From Candidatus Sodaliphilus limicaballi (GTDB lineage: Bacteria; Bacteroidota; Bacteroidia; Bacteroidales; Muribaculaceae), in assembly GCA_018065815.1 (NCBI GenBank), contig JAGHSP010000256.1, positions 1 to 50,082 on the forward strand: DNA of 50,082 nucleotides, written 5' to 3'. Below are positions 10,195-40,696 of the stretch, piece after piece. Numbering within the stretch: position 1 is the first letter of the stretch; each line of letters begins with the position of its first letter. The position numbers and the translations under genes are program-made. The notes under the pieces are model-generated. The model was not told the origin of the DNA and searched no databases. It worked only from the letters and a program-made list of their open reading frames with translations.

Positions 10195-13100
10195 TTAAAA
10201 CGCGACCACCGCTCGCACACCGTAGGAATTGCCCTTATTGTTGTAGTTGTAGACGGCGCCGCTCCCTGCATTAATGTTGTACGCGTAGGAAGCACTGAAT
10301 TCGGTGGTTGACCACTGCCAATCGGTCGGCTTCACCCATAAGCCCAGAGCGAATGCCTTGGCAAATATGGCCTTTTCGTTGGCTGTATCATAGCCCTGCA
10401 GGTGCCACCACACCATGCGGGCCAGCTCTCCAGCACTCGGCAGCCACCAGCGGTGAGCCTTGAACTTGTCACTCAACACCTCGCCGGCCTTCACCTTGGG
10501 CTCATACGCATAGCAGCGGCTCGCTGCAGGGAAATAGAACTCACGGTAATTATTGCCCTTAGCGGCCACTATCGCATCAATACGCGCCTGCAGCACCTCG
10601 GTCTCGCTCTGCATCGCGTTGGCTTCAATCGGAGCACTCAGGTCATAACCGTCAAGGGTTACGCCGTTCAGAATCTTGTTCCTATGGCGGATGATGTGCA
10701 GCGTCTTGAACTGACCCACATGGATGAAGTCGCCGGCTTTATAGGGACCGAGGTTCTCTTCCAACTGCACCATACCCATGTCACCCACGGCAGTCGTGCG
10801 CGAGAATATCTTGAAGCCCTGGGCATCGCCGGCGGCCTCGTCGCGGTAGTTAGCATCGTTGATGGTATTCGTGCCGACTGCGGTGATATTGCTGATGGCT
10901 GGCACATCATAGCAGTTATAGTCCTCGCCACTGTCCAGCGTCACGCCACTCACCCTGTCGGGATGAAGGCCCCACTGGTCACTGACAAGGTTTGCAAGGC
11001 CATAAGCCAGGCGGTCAGTAGGATCATCGGGGTTGATGTACATGCACACGCCCACAACGGTCTTGCCTGGCAGATATTCGTCACTGAACGAGCCGTCGGC
11101 ATACACAAGGTCGCCCTCCTTGCAACTGTGCTCATGGAAATGCAACTCTTTGCTGGCTGTAACTGTGCTTCCGTCATGCAGCGTCAAGGTGACGGTCACC
11201 AGGGCAATGGGCGGGTTGGCTTCTGTACCCACGCGGTTCACGGTCACTACTCCGGTCTGGGCATTCACGCTCGCCCACTCATTGCTCGGCATGCTCCACG
11301 TGATGGCGGTGAAGTTGTTGCCCTCGCTGGTAATCTCAAGCGGGTAATCGCCCACCGTGGGCATATACTTGCTCGTGGTGATGGCCACATTCTCGACGGT
11401 CTGGCGGTTATATACGATGGTCAGTCCCTGACTGCCGTGGTCAACGTCACCCCACGTCACTACCCATCTGCGCTTGCGCTCAAAGCTCACACTGGCACCG
11501 GTCAGGGTGATGGTGCCGCTCAGGCGGCAGTTGCTCCCGAGGGCAGCGAGCGCGTCAAGCAGACCGAGGCCATCCGAACCATTCAGTCGCCAGTTCACGT
11601 TGTCAATCCTCACCTCGCGCAACTGACCGGGTGCGCTGGCATGCACACCACGCACGACCGCGAGGGTGTCAACAATCGGGGTGTTCTGCACGATGATGCT
11701 CTCCAGTGAGCCGTAACCCTCCATCTCCAGGGTTGAGACGCTGGTACAGTCTATCAGGCGCAAGGTCTTGAGGTGTCTGCCGAACACAAGCGTGGTCAAC
11801 GTCGTGGTCTTGGGCAATGTAACACCGGTCACACCGCTTCCCCACAAGTACAACTCGCGCAGTTGCTCCTGCTTGCTCAAGTCAAGGGTGAACACGCCGT
11901 TGCTCTTGCTGCCCAAGCCCTCGCAGTTGGTCAAGTCAATCACCTCAAGGCTCACGGCATTGGTGACATTGAGTTCCGTGAGTTTGGTGTTCACCCACTG
12001 GCGCGTCTGCCGGTCGGTGTTGCTGCCCAGTCGCAGCGAGCGTAGTTTCACGGCTACGCCAAGGTCGATGTCGCCGATGTCGCCATATTTGTACAGGTCG
12101 CCGATGTCGGTCAGCAGGTCGCCGTCAAACAGATATGTCACATTGTCGTTGCGCTCTATGACCATGCCATGCTGCACCTCGCTATTGACCACTGTCACAC
12201 CCTGCTCGGGGTCAAGGCAGCGGTAGCGAACTGTGTCACTATACTGGTAGTTGCCAAGTCCCAGGCACACCCACATCGGCATATAGGGCTTAATCACCAG
12301 GTCGCAACCGTAGCCCCAGGTGCGCCACGTAATACGGCGACCCTCACTGCCCAGCGCCCAGCGGCTGCCCCAGTACCTGAACGAGTTGCCCAACCAGTAG
12401 CGGCGCTGGTTCTTCTTGTCGCCAAGGCCACTCTCGATCCAGCGGCTGTAGGGGGTGCCGCCTTGGTACTGCTTCATGCCGTAGTTATAGAGTGCCTCGC
12501 ACCATGCACCCTGGTGACGCTCAAACCAGGCTATTAAATCCGGGCCGCTGAAACCGCTCTCCTTGCTCTTGTCATACAGCATCTTGGCAATCGCCTGAAT
12601 GCGGTCGTCATAGCCATCCTTGAGATTGACCCAGATGGCGCCGCGCTGGCCGTTGAACACGGTGCTCGAGCCTGCAGGCTGGCTCGGTTGGTCATATACG
12701 AACCTACCGTTCACAATGTAATCTGACAAACCAAGCCAGAATGGGAACTCGATGCGGCCCGTGTTGCCGATGCCCAGGCCACTGTCTGTGTCACGCGCCA
12801 ACGGACGCCACAGGCTGCCGTTATAGGTGCACAAGCCCAGGTTCTTACTCCCGTTGTCCATCATGTGGTTCACAAGCATCCATATCAGATACACGCACCA
12901 GTGGTCAACACTGATATAGTCACTGGCCTCGCTGATAAACTTAGCAAGGCGGTAGGCTGCTGTGTCGTAGGCATAGGTCACACCCTTGCTGTCAGTGTAA
13001 GGGGTGGCAAGCAAGCCGCCGGTGGCGAGTTTCTGGTTGGTGCTCACCAGCCAGTTGTGAAGACGCAACAGTCCGGCAGTCTCGGCTTGAACGGTCTCGG

Positions 13101-15810
13101 TCTGACCCGCGTTCTCAGCATGGCCAAAGTCGCGCTTCGCGCCGTTCTCTTTTATAATCTTCGGGTAGCGGGCCTCATAGTAGTTGTAGATGTCATTGAC
13201 CTCGGCATTTCGCTCGCTGTCCCAGCTCATGGCGTTGAACACGGTGTCCCACATCACGTTGTTGTCGCGGATTTCCCACGCCTGGGCACCGCTGCGCTCC
13301 CAGGTATATGCGCCCTCAAATCCCAGCACCTTCTCGTTGTTCTTGCTTGTGATCAGGTTGAACATCCCAATCGGGTAATAGGTGTTGTCCCAGTAGCGGA
13401 ACACGAATATCGGCACGGCCATAAGGCTCTGGCGGTAGGTCACGTCGCTCAACTGCTGGCGCACCTGGTATTGGACCCGCTGAGCCTCGGTCAGCGTGTC
13501 CAAGTCTGCACCCAGCGCAACGCACATCTTGTTGTACAGCATCGACATGATCGCGTTATTGGCCATTTCGCTGCTGGCATAGTCTTTCTTAGCGGTCCAG
13601 TCGTTGCTCAACGGTTCGCCGGCATACATGCGCCAGCCGGCACGGCTCGCACCGCCGACGGTAACGTTGTTAAAACTCATGTCGAGGTTCCTGAATGGAA
13701 CCGGGTAGTTCATCGAACTAGTGCCTTGGCATTTGAAGGTGTCACCGCTGGACGTGAACGAGGCGTTGCCGGCTTCAAAGTCATCGGGATTCAGGGGGTT
13801 GGTGTAGTTGCTGGTCTGCAGCGGGATGGCGGTCTTGCTCGTCGGCATGGCCTCGGCCTGCAGCACAAGCACTGGAAGTTCGGGACGGGCGGCGATCAGT
13901 TTGGGATAGCTCACCTCGAGGTTGCTGTCGAGCACGTCATTGCGCTTGGCGATGGCTATCTTGTCGGCCACTTTGGGCGTGTCGTAGGCATAGTTCTGCA
14001 CGATGCCTCTGCGGTCAAGGGTGCTGCGGTACATGCGCACGCAGTACAGGTCAACGTCACACTCGGCACTGCCCACAGTGATGGGCTGGGCCACTCCCTG
14101 CTTGAATGAGGTGCTGGGAGTGATCAGACGCATGGCTTGATACACGCCGTCGATATATACAAGCATCAGCGCCTCGAGACTGTGCTGCTCTGCGCCTTGG
14201 TCATCGGTCCAGGTATATTCGGTCTGCGTCCCTTCTATCACCATGTCGATGCGCACACGGGTATCTTCTTTATAGTCACAACTCAGGCTCTCGGAGTCAC
14301 TCGAAAATGTCATGCCGTTGGCCTTGAACTGGAAGCCGATGCCGCTGTACATGCACTCGGCAACAACGGCGTCGGCACGCACACAGTTACGCGTCGCAAG
14401 CTCAATGCTCACCGTCAAGCCCCTGCGGGTGCCGGCCACATCGCTTCCGTTACCCATCGCGGGGTTCTCGTCGAAGGGGGTCACGGGAATGGTCAGGTAC
14501 TGGCCTTTCTTCAGGTGCAGGGCGACGTTGCCGTCACTATCGGCAGCCCAGCCACTTCCGCCGGCGGTGAAGTCGAGGGCGCTAAGGTCCACGCTCACGC
14601 CGCCGCCGTTCCACACGGCGCGGTCCTGGTCGTTGTTGCTCTTGCCGGAACTGCGCAGCACCACATCGGCACCGGCCACCTCGCTCAGCACGACTTCGCC
14701 GGCAACAATGGTCACGGCAATGTTGCGACGCACGCCACCGCACTCAATGCGCACGGTGCGGTCGCCGGGCATTGTCTCGCCAAAGAGTGCCACGCTCCAG
14801 GTCTGCAAGCTGCTCAGCCCGTCCTCCAGCGTCACGGTCTGCACGCTGCCGGCAAGCACGGCATTGTTCTCGCCGATGATGGAAAGGCTCACCTCCACCT
14901 CGCCACTCGCACCGGGGTTCACAATCCAGTAGCCCAGCGTCAGGGTGTTGTACATGGCAAGGCGCGTCCCCGCTTTCAGGTCGCAGCCTATGACCACACC
15001 GCTCGCACCGGCTGGCTGATAGATATATTCCTTCTCTATCACGTCGGTGCGGATGTCCGCGTCTTCGGCATATTCCGCCCAGACCGTGACGCGGTGAATG
15101 CCGTAACTCTTGCCGGTCGTGATGGGGTAACTCTTCACCGATCCCGCACTCTGCGTTCCGCTCACCACCTCCTCGCCGTCGATGGCAACATGGACATTGC
15201 CTGTCACGGAACCGCTCAGGCGCACATCGACAGCCCAGTCACCGCTCATCACGGCGGCATCCGCCCAGTACGGCAACGACACGCCGATGTTCACGGCGGT
15301 CACCTCATAGGCCAGTGTCTGCTTCCTAACGCCATAGCCGTTGTCAACCTCAATGTAAAAGCGGTTGGTTCCCTCGCTCAGGTAACGACCCACATCTATG
15401 TCGTAGGTGTTGCCGTCATACACATCGAGGGTCTCAACCTCCACGTCATTCACAAGCACGCGGGCCGTGCAGCGGGTGGTCACGCTGATCTGCTCGTCGC
15501 CGTTCTGGTACTTGTTGCTCACGCCCAGCGACACCATGAATGAGGTGCCGAGCGCAATCCTGTAGGGCGCACTGCCCGCCACCGTGGTCGTGAGGTTGAG
15601 CAGGTAGTTGCTCTCGCTCACCACCAGGTCTATCATGCCGTTCTCATCGGGCATGAAGGTGCTGCCGTTCAGCCGCACACTCTTCACACCACCCTGATTG
15701 CCTATTATCGCGGCAATCAGGCGGTTCCACTCTTCGGCGGCAACCCGCCCTTGAGGGGTCTTGCCCTCGTTCTCGACCTTGCCGGCAAGGTCACTGATGT
15801 CTATAGCCAT
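10195..15810 (-). CDS. Large tail/receptor-binding protein, DGR target (LamG-like, CotH-like, LRR, Ig-like and C-terminal CLec-type domain with VR)
   Basis: Last gene of the tail operon; C-terminus WWLPSAGEL...WSTTE...GVRAVVAF is typical of CLec-fold DGR targets; contains the VR. Confidence 0.85.
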   Translation of the reverse strand: MAIDISDLAGKVENEGKTPQGRVAAEEWNRLIAAIIGNQGGVKSVRLNGSTFMPDENGMIDLVVSESNYLLNLTTTVAGSAPYRIALGTSFMVSLGVSNKYQNGDEQISVTTRCTARVLVNDVEVETLDVYDGNTYDIDVGRYLSEGTNRFYIEVDNGYGVRKQTLAYEVTAVNIGVSLPYWADAAVMSGDWAVDVRLSGSVTGNVHVAIDGEEVVSGTQSAGSVKSYPITTGKSYGIHRVTVWAEYAEDADIRTDVIEKEYIYQPAGASGVVIGCDLKAGTRLAMYNTLTLGYWIVNPGASGEVEVSLSIIGENNAVLAGSVQTVTLEDGLSSLQTWSVALFGETMPGDRTVRIECGGVRRNIAVTIVAGEVVLSEVAGADVVLRSSGKSNNDQDRAVWNGGGVSVDLSALDFTAGGSGWAADSDGNVALHLKKGQYLTIPVTPFDENPAMGNGSDVAGTRRGLTVSIELATRNCVRADAVVAECMYSGIGFQFKANGMTFSSDSESLSCDYKEDTRVRIDMVIEGTQTEYTWTDDQGAEQHSLEALMLVYIDGVYQAMRLITPSTSFKQGVAQPITVGSAECDVDLYCVRMYRSTLDRRGIVQNYAYDTPKVADKIAIAKRNDVLDSNLEVSYPKLIAARPELPVLVLQAEAMPTSKTAIPLQTSNYTNPLNPDDFEAGNASFTSSGDTFKCQGTSSMNYPVPFRNLDMSFNNVTVGGASRAGWRMYAGEPLSNDWTAKKDYASSEMANNAIMSMLYNKMCVALGADLDTLTEAQRVQYQVRQQLSDVTYRQSLMAVPIFVFRYWDNTYYPIGMFNLITSKNNEKVLGFEGAYTWERSGAQAWEIRDNNVMWDTVFNAMSWDSERNAEVNDIYNYYEARYPKIIKENGAKRDFGHAENAGQTETVQAETAGLLRLHNWLVSTNQKLATGGLLATPYTDSKGVTYAYDTAAYRLAKFISEASDYISVDHWCVYLIWMLVNHMMDNGSKNLGLCTYNGSLWRPLARDTDSGLGIGNTGRIEFPFWLGLSDYIVNGRFVYDQPSQPAGSSTVFNGQRGAIWVNLKDGYDDRIQAIAKMLYDKSKESGFSGPDLIAWFERHQGAWCEALYNYGMKQYQGGTPYSRWIESGLGDKKNQRRYWLGNSFRYWGSRWALGSEGRRITWRTWGYGCDLVIKPYMPMWVCLGLGNYQYSDTVRYRCLDPEQGVTVVNSEVQHGMVIERNDNVTYLFDGDLLTDIGDLYKYGDIGDIDLGVAVKLRSLRLGSNTDRQTRQWVNTKLTELNVTNAVSLEVIDLTNCEGLGSKSNGVFTLDLSKQEQLRELYLWGSGVTGVTLPKTTTLTTLVFGRHLKTLRLIDCTSVSTLEMEGYGSLESIIVQNTPIVDTLAVVRGVHASAPGQLREVRIDNVNWRLNGSDGLGLLDALAALGSNCRLSGTITLTGASVSFERKRRWVVTWGDVDHGSQGLTIVYNRQTVENVAITTSKYMPTVGDYPLEITSEGNNFTAITWSMPSNEWASVNAQTGVVTVNRVGTEANPPIALVTVTLTLHDGSTVTASKELHFHEHSCKEGDLVYADGSFSDEYLPGKTVVGVCMYINPDDPTDRLAYGLANLVSDQWGLHPDRVSGVTLDSGEDYNCYDVPAISNITAVGTNTINDANYRDEAAGDAQGFKIFSRTTAVGDMGMVQLEENLGPYKAGDFIHVGQFKTLHIIRHRNKILNGVTLDGYDLSAPIEANAMQSETEVLQARIDAIVAAKGNNYREFYFPAASRCYAYEPKVKAGEVLSDKFKAHRWWLPSAGELARMVWWHLQGYDTANEKAIFAKAFALGLWVKPTDWQWSTTEFSASYAYNINAGSGAVYNYNNKGNSYGVRAVVAF
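10202..10298 (-). repeat. DGR variable repeat (VR)
   Basis: 91/97 identical to 40521-40617; all 6 mismatches lie opposite TR adenines. Confidence 0.97.
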
Positions 15811-15842
15811 TGCTTTATCGTTTTAATGCTGTTATAATGTCA

Positions 15843-16208
15843 TTAGAAAATGATGGGGAAGGTCAGTGGGAAGCCCTTGATCAAGGGCGTGCCCTCCCTG
15901 CTTGCCACGGTGAACAGACCCAGATTCAGGCTCTGGATCTCACCGTCATCGATGCACACGTACCACACCCGCGTGTCCCATGAGCCCAGTGCCAGGTACT
16001 CGGCGGTGCTCATCGGTCGCACATTGTTCAAGGTGGTCAATGCCGCGCTGATCTGCTGCTTGGTTTCCTCGGGGATGCCGTTGAGGCGGTCAACAATCTC
16101 GTTTATTTTCTCGGGAAGACTGTTGAACTCGCCGGCTGTAACCCGCTCGCCGGTCTGCTTCTCGGCGATATACAAGCGGTCAATATTCCGGTTCTCGTTC
16201 TGTGCCAT
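15843..16208 (-). CDS. Hypothetical tail-module protein
   Basis: 121 aa; KQTGERVTAGEFN resembles the N-terminus of the next gene (GRVAAEEWN); ends FPLTFPIIF. Confidence 0.65.
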   Translation of the reverse strand: MAQNENRNIDRLYIAEKQTGERVTAGEFNSLPEKINEIVDRLNGIPEETKQQISAALTTLNNVRPMSTAEYLALGSWDTRVWYVCIDDGEIQSLNLGLFTVASREGTPLIKGFPLTFPIIF

Positions 16209-16212
16209 GTCG

Positions 16213-16419
16213 CTATGATAGTTTGAAAGGTAAGGTATAGGTGAAACACTCGTCGGTAACGGGACCGATCATCGTCAACGCATGGGCGACTATCTCGGGA
16301 ATGTACTTGCTGTAAGCTCCGTCCTGCACGGCACTGCCGCCCACCACTCGCACGCGCACCGAGCCACCGTTACTGCGATTGTCGGCACTCAACCTTATCT
16401 TGATGTTCTTTACACTCAT
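16213..16419 (-). CDS. Small tail-module protein
   Basis: 68 aa, coupled to its neighbours, ends FTYTLPFKLS. Confidence 0.55.
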   Translation of the reverse strand: MSVKNIKIRLSADNRSNGGSVRVRVVGGSAVQDGAYSKYIPEIVAHALTMIGPVTDECFTYTLPFKLS

Positions 16420-18926
16420 TTCTCAACTTCTATGTTTTGCCAGAATTGTGTCACTTGCGCAGTAAGGCAGCCATTCGTGAATGACCAGTATATCTGCCAA
16501 TATATTGGGTGTTTCATGGTCATCACTGCCGCTGTTTCATCCAACGACCAGTCGAAAGCATCTATCTCTGCTTGCGTAAGACCATAGTTTTGACGCAACT
16601 CGTCCTTGGCTTCGTCGATTGTGCCGAATTTCTCTATATTGTCGAATGTGGTTATCCTGCTGGCAACAGGTCGATAAAGCCCGTTCACAAGTTGGGTCGT
16701 GTCAAGCTCTCCGTTGTTGACTATGCTCTGGCTAATGAAATACAAGCCGTTCGCGGCAGATGCGAGACTGGCATCGTGGTTGCTGTAAGAACCGCCGGAT
16801 ATCACGCCGTTGATGCTTTTCGCTTGATAGCGGTATATATTGACCGCGTTTGTCGTGGCCTCACTATGGTCTCCGTCTGACGTTGTGTCAAGTGAAATGA
16901 ACACCACACTACTTGAGTCAAACCGCTCTTCGGTCACATTGTTCCAGTTCATGCCATTAGGGCCAAGGTCATAGAGCATCTGCCCATTGTTGTTGAAATA
17001 CTTGAGCACAGCATAGCCATTGGCATCAACACCGAACTGAATGTTGCGCTGACCGCCCTGACCGTAAACGTCCATCGTACTGCCGGCTATCACGACACGA
17101 GCCTGTCCTTCGGTAGGACGGGTCTCAAGCCTTTTGACCACAAGATCATCGCTCACCTCGGTAGTCGCGGCACTAAGCAGGATTTTGTCGTCCTCGCCGT
17201 TAATATAGATGCCAATCTTGCGCAAGCCGGCAAGCACGTTTGTATTGATAACCTCAAGGGCGATGCTGTTGGCCGTCTGCGTGATCTTGCTCGTGGTCAT
17301 CTCCTGCACCGGTTCCCAGTCCCACACGCTGAACGACGACCCGCTGGCCTTGGCGGTCTTGCAACGCACAATATCGTTGTTGAATATCTCGCCACCGCTA
17401 TAGGCTTTGTCGGTGACGGTGTCATACCACTGCGTTTGTATGCTGTCATTGCCGGTGTCAACAATGGCGGGATAGGTGGCATTCACCCACAGGTCACCCT
17501 CATCATACGGGGCGCGGGGCTGCCCGACGAACACCCTCCGCTTGCCGTCGGCGGTGTCCTGCGCTCTGGCTGCCGCTTCCAGCGAGGCAAGCACGTCGCG
17601 GTCGGTAAGTTCATTCCAGGTCCAGACATTCTCCACCTGCTGCCACACCCACGCTCTGCCACCACCGCTCGACAGGGCTCCACGATTGTAGTACAGGTCG
17701 CCTTCATGCAAGGCCTTGGTGTCAGCATCTGTCCAGTCCACGGCTGGAGCGTTCTGCAACGTGGGGGCAACGTCGCCGAACCACATCTCTATCATCTGGT
17801 CGGCCTGGTCTTGGGCTGCGGTGACCATGCCCTCAAGGCTGCTCACCAGTTCATCAAGGCGCACCCTATTGCCGTTGCGGTCGGTCACTGTGATCCAGGA
17901 GCCATAAGGGCTTAACTGGGCCTCGGCAGTGGGTAGTGTGAAACTGTTGATGCCGGTATATATGCGCACATAGGGATTGCCCGTTCCGGCACCGGCTATC
18001 ACAATGGCGTTCTGGCGGCTGCTGTCGTTCTCATTGCCAAGCAGCACCACATGGTCACCGGCTTCGGGCCAGTCGCTCTCACTGGCATACTCTCCAGGCA
18101 GATTGCCCAGCGACACCCAGTCGTCACCAACGGCAACCACCTTGCGCCAGTAGTATTTGTTCTGCGTGTTCTTGCTCTGACGGTAATGAAACGTCTGGCA
18201 ACGGGCAAGGTCGCCAACCTCAAAGGTGCGCACCACCTGATTGCCGGCAGCGTCCTCGCGGTTGAAGTAGCATTTGTACCAGGGAACGACGCTCACGCCG
18301 TCCACAAGCACACCTTCTCCTGGCTCCACACGGCTCACGACCATCGATGCGGCACTGGCAACAATCACACCGCCCACATGGCTCATCTTCTGGATCTCTA
18401 GTTCCACGGCACTCAACTTCTGCCGCACATGCAACTGGTCAACCTCCAGCTGCCAGTTGCCATCAGCGTCTTTCGTGAGACCGAAGCCGGTACCGCCGGC
18501 CTCATAGTCGCCGCTGTCGATGCCCTCGGGGAGGTGTACCCTGGCTTGTGCCGTGTCTTCTACGTCCTTGCGCAGGAATTTGTCCCACGCATCGCTGTCG
18601 GCACTCAACGACTTGGCCTCATCGGCCACGCCGGCCTCGTCGGCATAGCCGGCCTTGACCTTGCCCTGCTCGCTCTCATCGGCATCCTCGGCTTTCTGGC
18701 GCAGCAGCAGGTAGCCATCCACTTCGCTCAGCGAGTCAAGCAGGGGCTTGTTGGCATGGCTGTGCGCTTGGGCCGCAAGTTCGGCACTCTCTGTTGCGCT
18801 GCTCTCACTTTGGCCGCCAACGGTCACACTGCCGCCACCGCCGGAACCGGATGTCCCCTGACGGCGTTTGCTTCTCGGTTGGGCTGTGCGCTCAACGGTT
18901 GTAACTGTATATTGTTTCTTGCTCAT
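16416..18926 (-). CDS. Tail tip/fibre-associated structural protein
   Basis: 836 aa in the tail operon; LEVDQLHVRQKL, KYYWRKVVAVG and ADGKRRVFV motifs seen in Bacteroidetes phage tail proteins. Confidence 0.7.
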   Translation of the reverse strand: MSKKQYTVTTVERTAQPRSKRRQGTSGSGGGGSVTVGGQSESSATESAELAAQAHSHANKPLLDSLSEVDGYLLLRQKAEDADESEQGKVKAGYADEAGVADEAKSLSADSDAWDKFLRKDVEDTAQARVHLPEGIDSGDYEAGGTGFGLTKDADGNWQLEVDQLHVRQKLSAVELEIQKMSHVGGVIVASAASMVVSRVEPGEGVLVDGVSVVPWYKCYFNREDAAGNQVVRTFEVGDLARCQTFHYRQSKNTQNKYYWRKVVAVGDDWVSLGNLPGEYASESDWPEAGDHVVLLGNENDSSRQNAIVIAGAGTGNPYVRIYTGINSFTLPTAEAQLSPYGSWITVTDRNGNRVRLDELVSSLEGMVTAAQDQADQMIEMWFGDVAPTLQNAPAVDWTDADTKALHEGDLYYNRGALSSGGGRAWVWQQVENVWTWNELTDRDVLASLEAAARAQDTADGKRRVFVGQPRAPYDEGDLWVNATYPAIVDTGNDSIQTQWYDTVTDKAYSGGEIFNNDIVRCKTAKASGSSFSVWDWEPVQEMTTSKITQTANSIALEVINTNVLAGLRKIGIYINGEDDKILLSAATTEVSDDLVVKRLETRPTEGQARVVIAGSTMDVYGQGGQRNIQFGVDANGYAVLKYFNNNGQMLYDLGPNGMNWNNVTEERFDSSSVVFISLDTTSDGDHSEATTNAVNIYRYQAKSINGVISGGSYSNHDASLASAANGLYFISQSIVNNGELDTTQLVNGLYRPVASRITTFDNIEKFGTIDEAKDELRQNYGLTQAEIDAFDWSLDETAAVMTMKHPIYWQIYWSFTNGCLTAQVTQFWQNIEVEK

Positions 18927-18938
18927 TGTCCCTTGTCG

Positions 18939-30266: not shown

Positions 30267-30269
30267 ACC

Positions 30270-31835: not shown

Positions 31836-31836
31836 T

Positions 31837-32067: not shown

Positions 32068-32079
32068 CAACGACTCGCC

Positions 32080-32499
32080 ATGTTTATAACCGATGAAGAC
32101 TACCGCGTGGTCATCGGCGAGAATGCGCTGAAGACCATCTCACAGGTGAGCGAGACCAACCGCCGGCAGGCCGAGGATGAAGCCGCCGAGGAAATCGCTT
32201 CTTACCTGCGACCGAAATATGACGCCGTGGCCATCTTCAACGCCATCGGCGAGCAGCGCAACTCCTACATTGTGATGATTGCCTGCGACATCGCGCTCTA
32301 CCACCTCTCGGCATCGCTGCCGCAGAAGATGGGTACCGAGGTGCGCAAGGAGCGGTACGACCGCGCCATCAAGTGGCTCGAGGGGGTGCAGGCAGGCAAG
32401 ATTGTGCCCGACCTGCCTCTGGCCACCGACGAGGAAACCGGCGACACGCTCCAGGGTTTCTCCTTTCATAGCGAACCGAAACTGACTAATAACTGGTAA
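32080..32499 (+). CDS. Mu gp36-like head-tail adaptor (DUF1320)
   Basis: IASYLRPKYD, CDIALYHL, RYDRAIKWLEGVQAG. Confidence 0.85.
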   Translation: MFITDEDYRVVIGENALKTISQVSETNRRQAEDEAAEEIASYLRPKYDAVAIFNAIGEQRNSYIVMIACDIALYHLSASLPQKMGTEVRKERYDRAIKWLEGVQAGKIVPDLPLATDEETGDTLQGFSFHSEPKLTNNW

Positions 32500-32503
32500 G
32501 ATC

Positions 32504-33847
32504 ATGGGACTTTTTCAAGACATCATAGACCGCCTCAGCGGCAAGTATGTGCTGCACACGCCGCACGGTGATTTTAACCTGGCACGAAACTCCGACCGCA
32601 AGAAGTTGCACAAGATCATGGTGGACATTCAGCGAACCACCGACAGCCTCACGCGCCAGGATCTGGGCGACTGGCGCAGGGCCTGGCAGATGGCCATCAA
32701 TGTGGACAGCCCCGACCGACTGCGCCTCTATCAGGTGTACCGCGACGTGGAGATTGACGCGCACCTCTCGGGCTGCGTAGAGCAGCGCAAGGGCTTCGTG
32801 CTCTCGCGCTCGTTCAAACTGGTTACACCCGACGGCGACGAGAACGAGGAGGCAATGGACTACTTCGACCAGGCCTGGTTCAAGCAACTCATGCGTTTCG
32901 CCCTCGACAGTATCTACTGGGGACACTCACTCATCGAACTGGGCGATGTGGTCAGCACCGAGAACGGGCTGCTCTCTCTCGACGGCGTGACGCTCATCGA
33001 CCGCCGCCACGTGATTCCCGAATACCACCGTGTGGTCCGCAACATGGGCGATGACTGGAAGTCGGGCATCGACTACCATGAGGCACCGTTTGCCAACCAG
33101 GTCATCGAAGCCGGGCAACCGCACGACCTCGGCCTCTACCTCAAGGCGGCACAGCAGACCATCCCCAAAAAGAACGCCATGGGCTTCTGGGACACGTTCA
33201 CCGAGATCTTCGGCATGCCCATGCGCATCGCAAAGACCACCTCGCGCGACGAGAAAGACATCAGCCGGCTCCAGAAGGTGCTCGACCTCATGGGTAGCAC
33301 CCAGTCGGGCGTGATGCCCGAGGGAACCGAGATTGAGATTGTCGAGTCCTCCAAGGGCGACGCATTCAATGTCTATGACCGACGAATCGACCGAGCCAAC
33401 TCGGAACTGTCGAAACTCATCATCGGGCAGACAATGACCATCGAGGACGGTTCAAGCCTCAGCCAGTCCGAAACACACCTCAAGGTGTTCGAGAACCTGG
33501 TGGAGGCTGACTGCGACCTGATCCGTGACTTAGTGAACACACAACTCATACCACGACTCATCACCATAGGCTTCCCGCTCAAGGGGCTGCGCTTCGACTG
33601 GGACTACTCCATCGACTACACACCCGAGCAGCAAGTGGCCTACGAGACGATGGTGCTGAACAACTACGAGGTTGACCCCTCATACTTCGAGGAGAAGTAC
33701 GGCATGCCGGTGGGCGAGCGCCGGAGCAATGCCCCCGTCGCGCCCACAGAGCCGCCACAGGACGATAAAAAAACCGAAAGCGAGGAAACGCCCACCGAAG
33801 AGAACACAAGCCGCCAGGCGGCGACTGTTCGCCCTTTTTTCGACTGA
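32504..33847 (+). CDS. Portal protein (Mu gp29/DUF935-like)
   Basis: DAHLSGCVEQRK, FTEIFGMPMRIAK, ELSKLIIGQTMT. Confidence 0.88.
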   Translation: MGLFQDIIDRLSGKYVLHTPHGDFNLARNSDRKKLHKIMVDIQRTTDSLTRQDLGDWRRAWQMAINVDSPDRLRLYQVYRDVEIDAHLSGCVEQRKGFVLSRSFKLVTPDGDENEEAMDYFDQAWFKQLMRFALDSIYWGHSLIELGDVVSTENGLLSLDGVTLIDRRHVIPEYHRVVRNMGDDWKSGIDYHEAPFANQVIEAGQPHDLGLYLKAAQQTIPKKNAMGFWDTFTEIFGMPMRIAKTTSRDEKDISRLQKVLDLMGSTQSGVMPEGTEIEIVESSKGDAFNVYDRRIDRANSELSKLIIGQTMTIEDGSSLSQSETHLKVFENLVEADCDLIRDLVNTQLIPRLITIGFPLKGLRFDWDYSIDYTPEQQVAYETMVLNNYEVDPSYFEEKYGMPVGERRSNAPVAPTEPPQDDKKTESEETPTEENTSRQAATVRPFFD

Positions 33848-33852
33848 GCCCC

Positions 33853-35208
33853 GTGGACTACGCGGGGCTGCACCAGCGTTACGCCGAAATCCTGGGTACC
33901 GCCACCTTCGCCTCACCTCGCGAGGAAATTGAGAAGCGCATCCGTGACCGGGTGGGCAAGGCTTTCGAGGGGATGATGCACGCGCTCTACCGCCAGGAGG
34001 GGGCGATGCTGCGGGTCGAGGTGATGGCCGAGCCGGAGGTGACCGACTTCATCAGCACACACGCCGACGCGCTCAACTCGTCGATGCGGCAGGTGGCGAT
34101 GTCAGATGCCATGCGCCAACGGTTGGAGCGGTCTAATTTCATCTTCTCGGGCTTCAAGGCGTTTCACGAACTGAACGAGGCGTTTCCGTCGCTCATCGGT
34201 GAGAACGGCGAGCGCAAGCCGTTCGACACATTCCTCAACGAGGTGCATGCCATCGACGAGACTTACAACGTCAACTATCTGCGTGCCGAGTACAACTTCG
34301 TCAATGCCTCGGCCGACATGGCTGCCAAGTGGGAGCAGATTGAGGCGGACGGCGACCGATATAATCTCCAGTACCGCACACAGCATGATGACAAGGTGAG
34401 ACCGGAACACGCGGCCCTTGATGGGGTCACGCTGCCGCCCAGCGACCCGTTCTGGGAGTCTTACTACCCACCCAATGGATGGAACTGCCGCTGCACAGTC
34501 GCACAGGTCCGCAAGACCAAGTACCCGACAACCGATCCTGCAGAGGCTTATGCCCGTGGCGAGGAGGCACTGCAGCGTGACACGCGCGGCATCTTCCGAT
34601 TCAATCCTGGCAAGCAAGGCAAGGCGATTCCCGACTACAATCCCTACACCATCAAGCGCTGCCGAGACTGCGACATCGCCCAGGGCAAGACCAACCTGGC
34701 TCACATCCCCGACAACGACCTTTGTGCAGCCTGCCGTCTCATTCGTTCTCTTCGTGAAGAAATTCATGGCTATGATCCTCAAGTATGGGTTCACAATTAT
34801 ACCGGGAAAAATAATGACGGTTATGTGATGACAGAGCGGGATAGAATACCAGACGAATCAGCAGACAACAATGATATAGCCAAATACAACAAAGAGTTTG
34901 GCATGTGTAAGGTTGCGGCTGATAATGGTCATAAGGTTGAGTTTTTGAGCGAAAACAACCGAGCAGAGGGACAAACTTTCGATATTCGATTTGATGGAAT
35001 ACCTACAGAATTAAAAGCCACTATTGGCACAGGTAACATCGTCGGTTATTATAGTTATGCAAGGAAGCATCAAGGTGCAGAAGCTGTTTTCTTCCGTTTT
35101 CCGCATGGCTCAACGGAATTATTCAAGCGATTATCAGAAGCCAAAAGAAAATATGGTGGCAGAATATTCTATTACTATGAAAATGAGAATATAGTGATGG
35201 AATTCTAA
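33853..35208 (+). CDS. MuF (Mu gpF-like) head protein with a C-terminal nuclease-like extension
   Basis: DDKVRPEHAALDG...YYPPNGWNCRC MuF motif; low-GC C-terminus with FDIRFDGIPTELK. Confidence 0.82.
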   Translation: MDYAGLHQRYAEILGTATFASPREEIEKRIRDRVGKAFEGMMHALYRQEGAMLRVEVMAEPEVTDFISTHADALNSSMRQVAMSDAMRQRLERSNFIFSGFKAFHELNEAFPSLIGENGERKPFDTFLNEVHAIDETYNVNYLRAEYNFVNASADMAAKWEQIEADGDRYNLQYRTQHDDKVRPEHAALDGVTLPPSDPFWESYYPPNGWNCRCTVAQVRKTKYPTTDPAEAYARGEEALQRDTRGIFRFNPGKQGKAIPDYNPYTIKRCRDCDIAQGKTNLAHIPDNDLCAACRLIRSLREEIHGYDPQVWVHNYTGKNNDGYVMTERDRIPDESADNNDIAKYNKEFGMCKVAADNGHKVEFLSENNRAEGQTFDIRFDGIPTELKATIGTGNIVGYYSYARKHQGAEAVFFRFPHGSTELFKRLSEAKRKYGGRIFYYYENENIVMEF

Positions 35209-35285
35209 AAAGAAAGGCCGATAAATCGGCCTCAGGCGGTACAACAGCCTTGCGGCCTTGTCCCTATCTTCATCGCTGAAGACAT
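35207..35285 (-). ncRNA. Candidate ~75-80 nt small RNA
   Basis: TACCTTTG -7 box (35288-35295), two GNRA hairpins, terminator hairpin plus U tract; no ORF. Confidence 0.5.
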
Positions 35286-35322
35286 TACAAAGGTAATACT
35301 TATTTTTCAATTAGCAACTATC

Positions 35323-35496
35323 ATGGACAAAAAAAATAAAAAACGCTACTGCATTGACGAGAAAATCAACCGGCAGGTACGCCGCGCCAGGATGAGGACT
35401 AAGACAGGCATCATCCTTTTCCTATCTGCCACCTTGGTTGCCGCAGTCTGTTTTCTCGTGTTTATCATCAGCTCAATTTTCTGTATCACTAAATAA
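35323..35496 (+). CDS. 57-aa basic protein with a C-terminal TM helix, not in the ORF track
   Basis: MDKKNKKRYC...GIILFLSATLVAAVCFLVFIISSIFCITK*. Confidence 0.5.
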   Translation: MDKKNKKRYCIDEKINRQVRRARMRTKTGIILFLSATLVAAVCFLVFIISSIFCITK

Positions 35497-35505
35497 TCAA
35501 TAATC

Positions 35506-35712
35506 ATGGACAAGTTAACCGTCAACATCGAATTTACCCGCGACCAGGTGGCAACAGTGGCAACTCTCGCAGGTGTAGAACTGGACCAGGAAGTATGGGA
35601 CAAGGTCACAGAGAAACCTGTAAACCTCAGCATGGGTGATATTGATGACAAAGAAGCCCGACTCGGTCTGTTAATCGCAATTGTAGGCATTGCCATGGAC
35701 AAAGCCCTCTGA
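35506..35712 (+). CDS. Small hypothetical protein
   Basis: 68-aa ORF with an AT-rich leader. Confidence 0.55.
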   Translation: MDKLTVNIEFTRDQVATVATLAGVELDQEVWDKVTEKPVNLSMGDIDDKEARLGLLIAIVGIAMDKAL

Positions 35713-35737
35713 CATCACTCAATAAAAAGCAACAACT

Positions 35738-36490
35738 ATGGCATCATTATTTCAAGATTACGACGAATTTGTTGAGAAGTTCAAACCGAAAAAGACCACC
35801 GACGATTGCTATACACCCAAAGCGGTCTATGATGTCGTACTCGAGTACGTCAATGGCATCACATCGCTTGATGGGCGACACATCGTCCGCCCATTTTGGC
35901 CAGGTGCCGACTTCACTGAGTGCGATTATCCAGACGGTTGCATTGTCATTGACAACCCTCCGTTCTCAATATACAGCAAGATTGTGCGCTGGTTCCTTGC
36001 ACATGATATAGACTTCTTTATATTCGCACCGGGACTTACCCAGCGCGTCGCAGGTGCGGACGTGTGCTATGTTGCCACGATGGCAGACGTCACCTATGAC
36101 AATGGTGCACTGGTGCGCACCTCATTCACGACTAACATCATTAAAGACTATCGCCTGATGACTGCGCCCAAGTTGGCCGAGGACATCCGCAAGGCATCAA
36201 AAAAACCGACACGAGGCCAGCCTATCATATATGAATATCCCGATAACCTTATCACTCTTGCGCTGCTGGGCAAACTCAATCAGCGAGGCATCGACTTCTC
36301 AGTGCGTAAAGACGAGTGCGCAGAGGTGACCAATATCGATGCGCTCCGCCGTGTCAAGAAATCATTATTTGGTGGCGGTTTCTTGCTCAGCGAACGCGCT
36401 GCCGCGGAACGCGCTGCCGCGGAACGCGCTGCCGCGCGTGAGCGTCTTAAACTGACGCTCACGCGCGACGAGCTCGCCATGATCCCATAG
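35738..36490 (+). CDS. Putative DNA amino-methyltransferase (NPPF type)
   Basis: DDCYTP and IVIDNPPFS motifs. Confidence 0.7.
   Translation: MASLFQDYDEFVEKFKPKKTTDDCYTPKAVYDVVLEYVNGITSLDGRHIVRPFWPGADFTECDYPDGCIVIDNPPFSIYSKIVRWFLAHDIDFFIFAPGLTQRVAGADVCYVATMADVTYDNGALVRTSFTTNIIKDYRLMTAPKLAEDIRKASKKPTRGQPIIYEYPDNLITLALLGKLNQRGIDFSVRKDECAEVTNIDALRRVKKSLFGGGFLLSERAAAERAAAERAAARERLKLTLTRDELAMIP
36392..36436 (+). repeat. In-frame 15-bp tandem repeat x3 (ERAAA)
   Basis: GAACGCGCTGCCGCG x3. Confidence 0.9.
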
Positions 36491-36492
36491 TC

Positions 36493-37131
36493 TCACACAT
36501 TCAAGTCGAACCGCACGTCCTCGTTGCCGGCAAGCAGCTCGCGCGTCCGATCGATGTTGTTCTCATAGATGTGAACATTGCCCAGAAACAGCGTGATCGA
36601 CTTCAACGGCAGCTCTATCTGACGCGCCATCAGGTACAGGTGGTATATGTCAGCCGGAAGCCCCAGGTTGGCGTCGCTGCTGCGCTGGTAGGCGCTCAGC
36701 ACCAATTCACCGTCATCAATCTGGAACTGCACCAGGCTCAGGCATGGTGCCTGGTTGCTCTCGGCATTGGTCTCGCCCAGGAACAGGACGTAGTTCTTGC
36801 TGTTGCGCTTCTCGCGGTTGATTCTGGCGAGCAGAGGCGGCAACTTCTCCAGATAGGTCGGGTAACTGTTGACCAGGATTGATCCGCAGTAGTCCCACCA
36901 GTTGATGCCAACATCTCGGTATTTTTCCACCTGACGCTCGCCCTGCATGAACAGGCGCAACTCGCTCTTCAACTTCTTGCGGGCGATGCCATGGCTCTCA
37001 AATATATCGAGCAGGTCGGCGGGTGTTAGGTGCAGCGGCTCATTCAACAGGTAGCGGATGTTGCCCTTTTTGTTGGTCTGGGTCTTGCCCTGGTCCAATA
37101 CTTTGCTAAGGATTTGGTGATACTTATTCAT
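36493..37131 (-). CDS. Short thymidylate-synthase-family protein
   Basis: Catalytic PC, VQF, YQRSSDANLGLPAD, GNVHIYENN. Confidence 0.88.
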   Translation of the reverse strand: MNKYHQILSKVLDQGKTQTNKKGNIRYLLNEPLHLTPADLLDIFESHGIARKKLKSELRLFMQGERQVEKYRDVGINWWDYCGSILVNSYPTYLEKLPPLLARINREKRNSKNYVLFLGETNAESNQAPCLSLVQFQIDDGELVLSAYQRSSDANLGLPADIYHLYLMARQIELPLKSITLFLGNVHIYENNIDRTRELLAGNEDVRFDLNV

Positions 37132-37156
37132 GGCTCTAATGTGGTTTTAATGCCGT

Positions 37157-37993
37157 TCAAGCGGCGTTATAAATCATCATGTCAGTATAACTCGAGTTGT
37201 AGTTCATCTGGGCATGGAACTTCACCACATGACAGCCGGCAAAGGGATTGCCCTGGTCACGGTTCTTGCCCAGCCAGGAGCATAACTCAACGATGCTCGA
37301 CTTGTTGCTGGTGAAGTAGATGAAGCGGTGGTCACGCAGCACGTTCAGCACATCAAGGTAGTCACTCAGTCTCCAATACATCTTGTAGGTTCCGGCTTCG
37401 GTACTCAGGTAGGGAGGGTCAACCAGGAACACCACACCGGGCTCGTCCTTGTATCGCTCAAACACCTCATGATAGTCGGCACTGGTGATGGTCAGCCCGT
37501 CCAGATAATCACCTGCAGGGGCAAAGTCGGTGGTGCGAATTTTGTTATAAAACACCTCTTTTTTCAGTTCCTCGAGGCTCAGTTTGTATTTCATTGAGAA
37601 CAGGATAGAGGGCGACAGGCTGATGTAGTCCACACTGCCATATCTCGCCTCATGAGCGGCGATGGCATCTATCACGCGCAATCGCGCCTCGTCCTTGATG
37701 GGCGACCTCCTCTCAATGCCGGCTGTAATGTCACGCAGCCGGGCAAGCAACTCATTGGTCTCGGGAATACGCTCCAGACGCTCGCGGTAGTTATCGTAGT
37801 CGTTATATACGACCTTGCTGTTGGGTTTCTGGTGCTTGACGATGTGCGACAGCAAGCCGCTGCCGCCGAACAGGTCAACAAAGGTGGTGCCGTCAGGGTA
37901 CTGCTCGAGCACCTGCATAAACGGCTTGGCGAAGTTCCGCTTCTGGCCCACGAAAGGAAGCGGAGCCGAAAGGTATAGTTTTTTCGTTTCCAT
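37157..37993 (-). CDS. Dam-like DNA adenine methyltransferase
   Basis: PLPFVGQK, VDLFGGSG (SAM binding), VDPPY (catalytic). Confidence 0.85.
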   Translation of the reverse strand: METKKLYLSAPLPFVGQKRNFAKPFMQVLEQYPDGTTFVDLFGGSGLLSHIVKHQKPNSKVVYNDYDNYRERLERIPETNELLARLRDITAGIERRSPIKDEARLRVIDAIAAHEARYGSVDYISLSPSILFSMKYKLSLEELKKEVFYNKIRTTDFAPAGDYLDGLTITSADYHEVFERYKDEPGVVFLVDPPYLSTEAGTYKMYWRLSDYLDVLNVLRDHRFIYFTSNKSSIVELCSWLGKNRDQGNPFAGCHVVKFHAQMNYNSSYTDMMIYNAA

Positions 37994-38043
37994 GCAGCAA
38001 AGGTCGGTTTTTCTTGCCAACCGTGCCACACAGAAAAAAGCAA

Positions 38044-38286
38044 TCACACTGCACCCAGCGTGCAGTGCTGGCCGAAGCGCTTCACCAGGCTATAGACCTT
38101 GCGCTCACTCACATGATACCGCTCACTCAGCACGGTGACGATATAGGTCACTTTCTCCCCCCCCTCGCGCATCGACTGATAGTCGCGGTAGAGGTCGATG
38201 TATCGGCAATCATCAGGCTTGGCTCCAAACTCATGCAGCCGGTTGAGCATCTCTTTGTTGATTGATAGTGCTTCAAATAGTGTCAT
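38044..38286 (-). CDS. Small HTH protein heading the methylase/ThyA-like cluster
   Basis: LSERYHVSERKVYSLVKRF HTH-like motif. Confidence 0.7.
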   Translation of the reverse strand: MTLFEALSINKEMLNRLHEFGAKPDDCRYIDLYRDYQSMREGGEKVTYIVTVLSERYHVSERKVYSLVKRFGQHCTLGAV

Positions 38287-38311
38287 GTCAAAAATATTTT
38301 GTACCTTTGCG

Positions 38312-38441
38312 GTGCGTTACTTATTTATAAACAGAACAACCCACGTAAGGTGGCAGAAGGTATATGCCTCCAGCCTCACCTTGCGTGGGTATCTGTTATT
38401 AAGTAAGTAACGCGACTTTTGACAGGGCTGGGGGCTTTTTA
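38312..38441 (+). ncRNA. Candidate structured ncRNA (long stem plus pseudoknot)
   Basis: TACCTTTG at 38302-38309; arms 38314-38352 and 38377-38413; loop 38366-38375 pairs with 38426-38435; T run follows. Confidence 0.55.
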
Positions 38442-38457
38442 TTTGCCCCCTCCTTTG

Positions 38458-39288
38458 CTATTCTATAACCTGCACATATAGCCCAACCAGGGCACTCAGG
38501 TCATGGTACACGGGATTGCCGGTGTCTCTGATGCACAGGTAGGTCACCCCGCCCTGTGAGTAATACTTGCCCTGCTCAAGGGCCATGTTGCCACTGTAAG
38601 GAATGGGATTGTCAAGCGTGCCAAGCTCGGGCTCGCCTTCGCCCTGGGCAACGACCTCGGTAAATAATGCGGCTGCTGCCGTCGGTGTCCAGTCGGCTTG
38701 CACGGTGTGAGCCTGCAGCACTTTCCATAACCTACCGTCATAATAGAGGCGCTCGTCCACAGCAACCGTCTGACCCATCTTGCTCGCCCATGTAGGGAAC
38801 AATGCGGGAACCTCGATGGCTTGCTCATCGGGCAGGGCTGCAGTCTGACCTTTCAGCAGCTTCACAGCCTGCTGTAGCATCAACATACCGTCGGGCGTGA
38901 GCTCGCCATTGTCATGGGAGCCTTCTTCATCAGGCAAGCCGACAGGCTCAATGCCTTGCTCGGCTGCCCAAGTCATAGCCTCACGGGCGTACTGCTTGGC
39001 GGTCTTGCGCCATTCTTGTAATGCCTGGTACTCCGACAGGTGCTCAGGGTCAAAGAAGTTGTTAAGGCAGTTGTTGATCACCGCCTGCATCCGGTCCGGC
39101 GGGTAGCACTCGGTCACCAGTGCATCGACTATCGCGCTGTAACTCCACACTGCCGGAGGCAGGGTCACGCTGATCCACTCCCAGCCATCGGCGGTCGCGA
39201 TTGCGCCCACGTTTACGGTTCTTATGTTTTGCCCCATCTCTCTCCGGGTTTCCACCAACGGGGGGCAGGTCTCTCCTTGACTTCTCAT
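38458..39288 (-). CDS. Phage protein with C-terminal carbohydrate-binding-like modules (CBM5/12-like)
   Basis: YYDGRLWKVLQAHTVQADWTP and GKYYSQGGVTYLCIRD aromatic modules. Confidence 0.65.
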   Translation of the reverse strand: MRSQGETCPPLVETRREMGQNIRTVNVGAIATADGWEWISVTLPPAVWSYSAIVDALVTECYPPDRMQAVINNCLNNFFDPEHLSEYQALQEWRKTAKQYAREAMTWAAEQGIEPVGLPDEEGSHDNGELTPDGMLMLQQAVKLLKGQTAALPDEQAIEVPALFPTWASKMGQTVAVDERLYYDGRLWKVLQAHTVQADWTPTAAAALFTEVVAQGEGEPELGTLDNPIPYSGNMALEQGKYYSQGGVTYLCIRDTGNPVYHDLSALVGLYVQVIE

Positions 39289-40696
39289 ATTCTTCTAAGT
39301 CTTTTTTGATTAAATATCGTTCATAACTGTATCTCTTGCGAATCTTCACCAACGTAAAACGGCGTTTGACGTAGCAACATTGCCAGAAGTTGGGCACGTT
39401 GCGGAACATCTTCCGACGTTGGCGGTAACTATAGGCGTGCACGCAGAAACCCATGTAGGAGTTTAGGCTGCACACATGGTGCTTCAGCGCGGCAAGCGAC
39501 TCAGTGGTGGGACCCTCCTCCAGGATGTGCTTGCACAAGCGCTCGGCGCGTGCGACCTCATTGGTCATGTTGCCGATGGTGCGATTGCTGGTGTATAACC
39601 GACCGGGCTTGATCACGCTGCCAACAAACTTCACACCCTTACGCACTTCCTGCAGGTAGAACTTGTCTTTGTGCAGGGTCAGCCTCAGGTGCTTCTTGAG
39701 CCACATGGTGGCCTTCTTGCGAAGGTCAAGGATGAACTGCTTGTCGTGGCAGATGACTACGGCGTCATCGACGAAACGCACATAGCCGGCATCCTTCCAT
39801 GCACACTCCTCGAGCATGAAGCCATCAAAATACGAGAGATAGAAATTGGCGAGCAACTGGCTGGTGATGTTGCCGATGGGCATGCCCACATTGGGAGGCA
39901 TGTTGAACAGGCTCTTGCTGGCCGGCAGGGCTTCCCATAGCCGCTCGCTCGAGCGACGCTCACACAGCAGTTGGGGCTGGTGCCTGACTGTGACCTCGGT
40001 GAGCCACAGCAGGGTCTCGAGATCATCACCTTTGTAGTTCTCGCGCAGCCATGGCAGCAGAAGACGCAGCAGCACCTCTTTGTCGATGCTCATGAAGAAA
40101 CTGCTGATGTCTATCTTGCCAACCCACGCCTCACGCGTGTAACGCTCGCTCACGCGCTCGATGTGGGATTTGGCGGTCTGCACCGCACGCAGTGTGCCAT
40201 AGCCTTTTCGACAGTTGAACGATACATCGCCTTGGCTGCGGAACCGCCACTCGAGCAGCGGTTCCAGCCGCAGCGTTATCCAATGTTGCACAATGCGGTC
40301 ACGGAACGAGGCGGCGAAAATCTCGCGAAGTTTGGGCCTCGTCACCACGAAACAGAACGACTCGCTGGGCTTGTAGGTGCGCTCATGCACCTCCAGCACC
40401 AACCGCCACAGGTCGCGCTCGAACTCTATGCGGTACTCGTTGCACTGCTTCGCTGTCAGCTTGTGCCTGATACAGTCAAAATAGGCATCTATCCACCCCG
40501 ATTTCTCTTCATTACCAAGTGCGACCACCGCTCGCACACCGTTGGAATTGTTCTTATTGTTGTTGTTGTTGACGGCGCCGCTCCCTGCATTAATGTTGTA
40601 CGCGTTGGAAGCACTGAGCGATGATGCGTGCGTTACTCGTTTCCTAACTACGCCTTGCGCAGTAGCACGCCCGTTTAATAATGAAAGAGGATTCAT
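39062..40696 (-). CDS. DGR reverse transcriptase
   Basis: KLREIFAASFRDRIVQH, IDISSFFMSID, GMPIGNITSQLLANFYL (DGR-type SQ), YVRFVDD; adjacent to the TR and Avd. Confidence 0.95.
   Translation of the reverse strand: MNPLSLLNGRATAQGVVRKRVTHASSLSASNAYNINAGSGAVNNNNNKNNSNGVRAVVALGNEEKSGWIDAYFDCIRHKLTAKQCNEYRIEFERDLWRLVLEVHERTYKPSESFCFVVTRPKLREIFAASFRDRIVQHWITLRLEPLLEWRFRSQGDVSFNCRKGYGTLRAVQTAKSHIERVSERYTREAWVGKIDISSFFMSIDKEVLLRLLLPWLRENYKGDDLETLLWLTEVTVRHQPQLLCERRSSERLWEALPASKSLFNMPPNVGMPIGNITSQLLANFYLSYFDGFMLEECAWKDAGYVRFVDDAVVICHDKQFILDLRKKATMWLKKHLRLTLHKDKFYLQEVRKGVKFVGSVIKPGRLYTSNRTIGNMTNEVARAERLCKHILEEGPTTESLAALKHHVCSLNSYMGFCVHAYSYRQRRKMFRNVPNFWQCCYVKRRFTLVKIRKRYSYERYLIKKDLEEYEKSRRDLPPVGGNPERDGAKHKNRKRGRNRDRRWLGVDQRDPASGSVELQRDSRCTGDRVLPAGPDAGGDQQLP
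40521..40617 (-). repeat. DGR template repeat (TR)
   Basis: AAC-rich (11 AAY codons, 30 adenines); matches VR 10202-10298 except at adenines. Confidence 0.97.

Follow-up and report, generated by a model that had tools for sequence, protein, structure and literature searches.

In the diversity-generating retroelement (DGR) of Bordetella phage BPP-1, arranged as mtd-avd-TR-Sp-brt, a 144-nt non-coding spacer (Sp) bearing the primer lies between the template repeat (TR) and the reverse transcriptase (RT) gene brt; as described in the preprint text of Handa et al. (bioRxiv 2023.10.23.563531), the primer SpA56 pairs with TR118, copying begins at TR117, and an avd:spacer duplex stops the RT. What is understood of DGR priming stems from this one element, and conservation of the mechanism across taxa has been proposed. 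Hankyphage (Bacteroides phage p00, jmh43_hp), a Mu-like Bacteroidales prophage whose DGR is reported as active (PMC12135933), carries target-hp41-TR-RT-avd together at its right end, where the RT is a gene of its own that the TR precedes by about 200 nt. Overlap of TR and RT was catalogued as group 3 of DiGReF in 2012, in a section that includes neither a frame test nor an RNA model (PMC3521204). Wu et al. 2018 (PMC5758913) state that the TR is not translated, report two phage DGRs with the sole target 20 kb away, and describe phage DGR targets of about 2000 aa in their category f1. The literature already covers DGRs in Mu-like Bacteroidales phages, targets at a distance, and the overlap of TR and RT. 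Here, we describe a DGR in a stretch of 50,082 nt (the window; contig JAGHSP010000256.1, forward strand) from Candidatus Sodaliphilus limicaballi, a member of the Muribaculaceae. The explanation that accounts best for the data, held with moderate confidence, is that of an active DGR with a remote, likely tail target, an RT likely translated through the TR, and complementary DNA (cDNA) predicted to be primed from upstream of the TR.

The TR and the variable repeat (VR), 97 nt each with 94% identity, were located on the minus strand at 40521-40617 and 10202-10298, respectively. VR encoded the last 33 residues of the target except the final Phe, and TR, which was the same in two sister-phage loci (L001 and L002) and genome G006, formed codons 27-59 of the RT reading frame. 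The two repeats differed at VR positions 10224, 10232, 10233, 10245, 10251, and 10287, each corresponding to an A on the TR coding (minus) strand; since TR contains 30 A among its 97 bases, the probability that 6/6 differences hit A is 6e-4. Both these positions and the resulting peptide changes (four N>Y, one N>G) agreed with those in an initial annotation of the window, and its count of 11 AAY codons, giving 15^11 or about 8.6e12 variants, was right; the variant space amounts to 2.9e13 when every A-containing TR codon is counted. Other features of a DGR were also observed, including a GC-rich 3′-end, an initiation of mutagenic homing (IMH) sequence unlike its TR counterpart (IMH*), and a hairpin after VR. 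An adenine-blind scan of the 448-contig assembly revealed no third TR-like copy, the two known copies agreeing at 67/67 non-A positions and the next best at 41/67, and neither a second RT nor a second VR was found in this assembly, which is 89% complete.

The DGR is active, as comparison of sister phages showed VR variation to be almost restricted to TR adenines. Two viral records from sister phages, each holding a TR locus and a VR locus (L001/L085 and L002/L084), were compared together with G006; the VRs of L084, L085, and G006 differed from an identical TR at 9, 8, and 9 adenines, respectively, in addition to the boundary site 10298. Among the variable VR sites listed across eight sequencing runs (assembled contigs), 24 of 28 were TR adenines, the remaining four being the boundary site 10298 and three sites beside a 3-nt gap in one contig. 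Three different VR contigs were present in a single sample (run X13; depths 2–3, contigs only). Near-identical target proteins possessing the C-terminus carried distinct VR peptides in 13 of 14 cases, some with codon indels, and the last 33 residues of the target had 51 extra states versus at most 18 in any other window of the protein (13 proteins). Thus, the suggestion in the initial annotation that the element is or was recently active is borne out by variation both among sister phages and within a sample; of the checks proposed there, the bias toward adenines was observed save for the four sites mentioned, and the VR was anything but invariant.

Several irregularities were noticed in the repeats. 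At the VR 5′ boundary (10298), the window has the TR base, giving codon Phe, while all other alleles have A (Tyr); one homing event possibly reached one base further. Length changes occurred within 10230-10275: run X1 lacked 30 nt, X10 had gained 2 nt (which, if real, would shift the frame), and one X13 contig was 3 nt shorter. Some TRs themselves showed A-to-N changes, namely those of the RT cluster members P0139, P0145, and P0146 and of L007/L038, L017, L046, and L028/L079; N>Y was seen in the TR peptide of 3/13 near-identical RT proteins, with P0139 present on 12 contigs, and the 5′ half of the L007 TR equalled its own VR. These changes could be due to self-homing, VR-to-TR gene conversion, or assembly chimeras.

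The RT reading frame (39062-40696, minus strand) specified 544 aa, the first 59 codons being leader plus TR, and contained the motifs GNITSQ and FVDD. Its closest match in PDB was 8ub7 (E 1e-13). The initial annotation had proposed placing the RT in a tree as a check against grouping with group II intron or retron enzymes. In a quick tree of 58 RTs, it fell with the RTs of BPP-1 and Hankyphage (support 95), apart from three group II and six retron RTs; the tree came from a quick search only, and the BPP-1 and Hankyphage RTs both had long branches. In agreement with this, scores against the retron profile NF038233 (45 vs the cut-off of 235 bits) and the group II intron profile TIGR04416 (95.7 vs 300 bits) were far below threshold, and the RT did not have the PQG..SP motif of group II introns. 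Upstream of the RT frame, at the position expected for avd, a gene of 161 aa (40724-41209, minus strand) with a core pI of 9.5 matched PHROG 3206 (E 2.9e-9), although it stayed under the cut-offs of Pfam (20.3 vs 40 bits) and NCBIfam (29.1 vs 80 bits). The SQ-motif RT named in the initial annotation was recovered, as was an Avd-like gene in the place of its Avd, but the TR is contained in the RT frame rather than merely flanked by these genes. That feature, the structured leader, and the 30-kb separation as a derived layout had been overlooked there.

The locus resembled BPP-1 in its adenine-specific TR-to-VR changes, the order avd-TR-RT, the RT clade with its SQ motif, the hairpin after VR, a target with a likely lectin-like C-terminus, and a predicted duplex ending in A:U beside the predicted first templated base. 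It differed in having the RT frame run through TR, the structured RNA upstream, and the target 30 kb off. By analogy with BPP-1, the RT, likely together with Avd, would copy TR with adenine errors into a mutagenised cDNA and write this copy into VR at the tip of a likely tail protein 30 kb away. The target would be marked by the hairpin after VR, so that the distance between target and module should be immaterial. This hairpin (10162-10187, minus strand), consisting of 10 GC-rich bp located 7 nt past the target stop, had a DNA folding energy of -12.8 kcal/mol (z -4.9) and was kept in six relatives with changed pairs, and is likely a target-recognition element. This part of the account, comprising the TR/VR pair, the adenine-restricted variation, the multi-allele sample, and the cDNA and target-marking steps modelled on BPP-1, is regarded as nearly certain.

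From an ATG at 40696, the RT frame comprised 26 leader codons, TR in the same frame as VR, and the RT proper, with no ATG in between. When 114 loci were grouped at 75% identity into 42 RT clusters, 31 of these had an uninterrupted frame that opens at an ATG upstream and spans TR; 30 were detected by script and one (L045) by eye. Because the first query had included TR and might have biased the result, the search was redone with the RT core alone; of the 23 loci with at least 40% identity, 21 again had the TR in frame, L100 and L107 being the exceptions, while more distant RTs mostly had their own ATG after TR. With anchors chosen blind to frame, 26 of 28 clusters had a leader free of stops when read in the RT frame, as compared with 0 and 5 for the two remaining frames and an expectation of 4.7; this count left out 6 of 34 clusters, for which TR or the motif had not been located, and in 3 of the 28 retained the first motif was wrong. 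An in-frame ATG lay 21–42 nt before an AAYGG motif in 25 of the 28. RTs with this layout formed one clade (support 99). The exceptional L107 (HF996019.1) had target and RT as one open frame of >2400 codons, with avd and leader gone, representing either a VR-TR recombination or a collapsed assembly.

The leader upstream of TR is a covarying RNA that pairs with the bases right after TR, as judged from comparative alignments. Three helices were recognized. P1 (40691-40718, minus strand) is a hairpin with a UACG loop; it lies 5 nt past the avd stop, occludes the RT ATG, and was paired in 87% of cells in an alignment of 26 loci. P2 is formed by a 5′ strand (40685-40675), followed by the invariant AAYGG motif (together 40671-40685, minus strand), and a 3′ strand (40508-40518, minus strand) directly after TR, that is, in an IMH*-like position. 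P3 (40626-40670, minus strand) is a two-part stem ending 9 nt before TR, in which double changes occurred at 13 of 15 pairs and the two parts were paired in 98% and 94% of cells. In the same alignment, P1, P2, and P3 together were paired in 86.9% of cells, compared with 69.5% after shuffling (none of 500 shuffles as high) and 33–44% in slid controls, and no covarying helix was found downstream of TR. In 30 clusters, the P2 register was 76% paired as opposed to 39–53% in shifted registers (partner permutation 0/5000); its end pair was A:U in 27/30, and the next A and the GG were present in 30/30. Pairing with the cognate partner gave a z of -10.4 versus -1.6 for the best of 16 windows downstream of TR, none of which (0/16) held a cognate-specific partner. 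Pairing of the TR 3′-end with the TR 5′-end or the leader end reached a z of only -1.6 and is not claimed. From the 32-row set used for P2, L106 (wrong motif picked) and L087 (duplicate of L086) were dropped, and L011, L096, and L058 were without anchor.

A model built from 13 leaders recovered 13/13 held-out leaders and six more at E 2.5e-4 or better, among them L145, which had not entered model building; two further loci were found weakly, and L148, which was missed by the model, showed the P2 register by hand. The model had no match in BPP-1, Hankyphage, L107, or RTs that possess a separate start, and none in 150 other genomes across the order under strict filters (0/150), indicating that the leader RNA is not general. 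No Rfam family matched 38000-42000 of the window with an E of 5 or lower, and none reached the gathering score in 20 related loci.

One transcript is inferred to carry avd, leader, TR, and RT. Since P1 sequesters the RT ATG directly behind the avd stop, the RT is probably made at a low level and in a manner coupled to translation of avd, and untranslated copies of the transcript would fold into the template, so that each transcript would serve as either messenger or template; this single-transcript scheme is considered probable. In the folded form, P2 would set A40675 against U40518, and the 2′-OH of A40675 (or A40674), the predicted priming adenosine, would start copying from about 40519 back through TR, the 3′ strand of P2 acting as the primer-binding site. 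Copying would then stop at P3, the predicted RT/Avd-binding element. For this prediction of upstream priming by a leader adenosine with a stop at P3, the chances are put at about even. The predicted layout of P2 corresponds to the template:primer geometry of BPP-1, with the primer strand shifted from downstream to upstream, and to the topology of a retron RNA. As in the retron msr-msd RNA described in PMC8632793, the RNA would be closed by complementary 5′- and 3′-ends, priming would come from the 2′-OH of a conserved purine immediately after the 5′ arm, and the RT would be halted by stems located between primer and template; unlike in retrons, the enzyme is a DGR RT, the predicted primer is A instead of G, and the product would be an integrated mutagenised copy of TR. 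A broader extension is put forward tentatively, at a little under even chances, namely that a large clade of DGRs in Bacteroidales phages uses a circularly permuted, retron-like RNA with the primer adenosine and the RT/Avd-binding stems upstream of TR, inside the RT coding sequence.

As the main alternative, the element may be an ordinary DGR of the BPP-1 type, primed downstream of TR within the RT coding sequence, in which case P2 would be the known upstream:downstream duplex ("cPRT Stop") or a stem controlling translation. Upstream:downstream duplexes are indeed predicted by Handa et al. in 207 of 278 Avd-bearing DGRs, as given in the text of their preprint, and the first 78 nt after TR had raised synonymous conservation (0.31), which leaves room for a downstream element. 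In the window, however, RT codons directly follow TR in place of a non-coding spacer with a primer and an Avd-binding stem-loop, and there is no room after TR for the latter. Moreover, the 3′ strand of P2 begins 2 nt past the TR homology, which is the place of primer binding in BPP-1, while the 5′ strand lies about 60 nt from TR, behind P3, and thus P2 cannot set the TR boundary. The lack of a covarying helix and of a cognate-specific partner downstream of TR likewise argues against this alternative, which is considered rather unlikely.

Besides the conservation after TR, a number of points weigh against upstream priming from the leader. P2 is the weakest helix, paired in 74.5% of cells in the 26 loci and with many G-U pairs; non-cognate partners already pair 65%, and only 8 of 32 rows had the cognate partner as sole best match. 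As a local fold, the leader had unremarkable stability (mean z -0.7). Loci L039, L147, and L148 and the L047/L058 cluster have in-frame TRs yet were missed by the leader model, and the held-out leaders had belonged to alignment A3. The structure came from these same related sequences, for which reason significance is exaggerated by the shuffles, and as the downstream windows exceeded the P2 window in width, a strict comparison of the z values is not possible.

A second alternative concerns translation: the RT might start at a GTG in the constant 3′-end of TR, so that the variable part of TR would never be translated and the open leader would be a by-product of RNA constraint. In-frame GTG codons are present at 40539 and 40530, one database record (P0138) starts there, and such a start would match the N-terminal length of the BPP-1 RT in an alignment; a lack of TR translation is also what Wu et al. 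state. In most clusters, a GTG near the end of TR would likewise give an RT of BPP-1 length, and the leader was conserved at the nucleotide level, with synonymous differences of 0.13 vs 0.47; both observations count against translation through TR. A leader peptide "LNG" was rejected as a protein motif and reads as an RNA motif, because its codons are nearly fixed. Against the GTG start stand the leaders that are stop-free in the RT frame only (26, 0, and 5 of 28) and the in-frame ATG ahead of the AAYGG motif in 25 of 28 clusters. Clusters with no ATG, GTG, or TTG after the Asn run, in which this alternative finds no start codon, were only 4 of 30. A start within TR is thus considered doubtful, and translation of the RT from the ATG at 40696 through TR is preferred.

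The sole target was located 30.3 kb from the avd-TR-RT module, which together with a companion gene sits behind the neck genes. The same split order was observed in G006, G001, G009:C53, and the viral records L002/L084 and L001/L085, and is therefore not a mis-assembly. An assembly artefact behind the split or the VR diversity is very improbable, even though a read is longer than the 97-bp repeat and VR-like bases occur in some TRs as assembled (L007, L017), since the split is identical in all these genomes and records and VR alleles hold bases absent from both TR and the VR of the window. In G003, G008, G009:C86, and G010, sharing 66–72% RT identity, and in deeper relatives, target-avd-TR-RT are adjacent, suggesting that the 30-kb split is likely a derived layout. 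A single origin of the split was unsupported, as split and adjacent layouts interleave on the RT tree; this pattern suggests cassette exchange. Compared with the remote targets in Wu et al. 2018, the distance is here 30.3 kb and the split is common to a group of Mu-like phages. Multi-target forms also exist in the clade: in L032/G005 and G004, the long tail target is accompanied by a short (237-aa) or second target whose end resembles a VR. Scanners that cover 10 kb around the RT and require 7 or more adenine changes, as stated for myDGR and the DiGReF settings, would likely miss this element, with its distance of 30.3 kb and only 6 changes.

Hypervariation of a tail tip by a DGR in a Bacteroidales prophage is an ordinary, well-known function, while the RNA layout is probably new. 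No description of an upstream DGR primer was found in the literature searched, which included the preprint text of Handa et al. without its supplements (Table S3 and Fig. S18, which may bear on novelty), and for the TR-in-frame idea this literature contained only the DiGReF overlap class. If the prediction is true, two layouts of DGR priming exist and an RNA link between DGRs and retrons becomes testable; DGR-based mutagenesis tools would gain a template without need for a downstream spacer, and one RNA serving as either RT messenger or mutagenic template would be a natural switch limiting mutagenesis.

The element resides in a Mu-like (transposable) Bacteroidales prophage at 9943-49864; these ends are approximate, being the positions at which sister-phage matches stop. 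Genes for MuA, MuB, Gam, Mu portal, gp36, Mu F, Mu head proteins, TerL, tail tube, and tape measure were identified in it, and the host arginine operon was situated outside, at 182-6334. The prophage is related to Hankyphage, also a Mu-like Bacteroidales prophage with MuA/B, Mu head genes, ThyA, a DNA methylase, an active DGR, and a homologous long target. The Hankyphage RT is distant from that of the window, and its locus is without the leader RNA. Judged by the low target identity (23.5%) and the different cassette order, the prophage falls outside Hankyphage proper, whose members share >95% nucleotide identity and have the cassette adjacent to the target.

The target gene (10195-15810, minus strand), last in the tail module, encoded 1871 aa, a size similar to that of the category f1 targets. 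Its product shared 23.5% identity with the Hankyphage DGR target over aa 135-1109 (E 2e-30), and many of its homologues possess PF07603. A C-terminal profile built from 52 homologues matched the C-terminal domain of Lcl (8q4e, E 8e-6). A structure model of the C-terminus (pLDDT 84.5) was aligned by VIA-align to 4eps (Z 5.7, rmsd 4.0, 134 residues aligned) and 8q4e (Z 4.4, rmsd 2.7, 84 aligned); these fold scores are modest for a lectin-like domain, and a Foldseek search of the model against PDB gave no match at E 1e-3 or better. A single-sequence AlphaFold model had been discarded (pLDDT 35). The target is likely a tail or receptor-binding protein with a C-terminal C-type-lectin-like domain.

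The companion gene (38458-39288, minus strand), its product probably about 209 aa, had a CBM5/12-like C-terminus (Pfam PF02839, E 1e-5). In 41 of the 45 closest RT loci, it followed the RT frame and overlapped it, irrespective of the distance to the target; moving with the RT rather than the target, it is a candidate accessory gene. A thymidylate-synthase-like gene and an adenine methylase gene (36493-38047) adjoin the DGR module, and in Hankyphage such a pair is also found after the RT, at the right end. On the host side, a non-coding repeat family represented at 7427-7857 of the window, with dozens of copies across the host assembly and including a 48-nt inverted repeat, is likely a small mobile element. 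Long AT-rich inverted repeats of 8-nt units were observed between the host arginine genes (939-1086 and 4276-4438), and the gene beside the prophage end (7904-9811) encoded BspA-type leucine-rich repeats and a dockerin domain.

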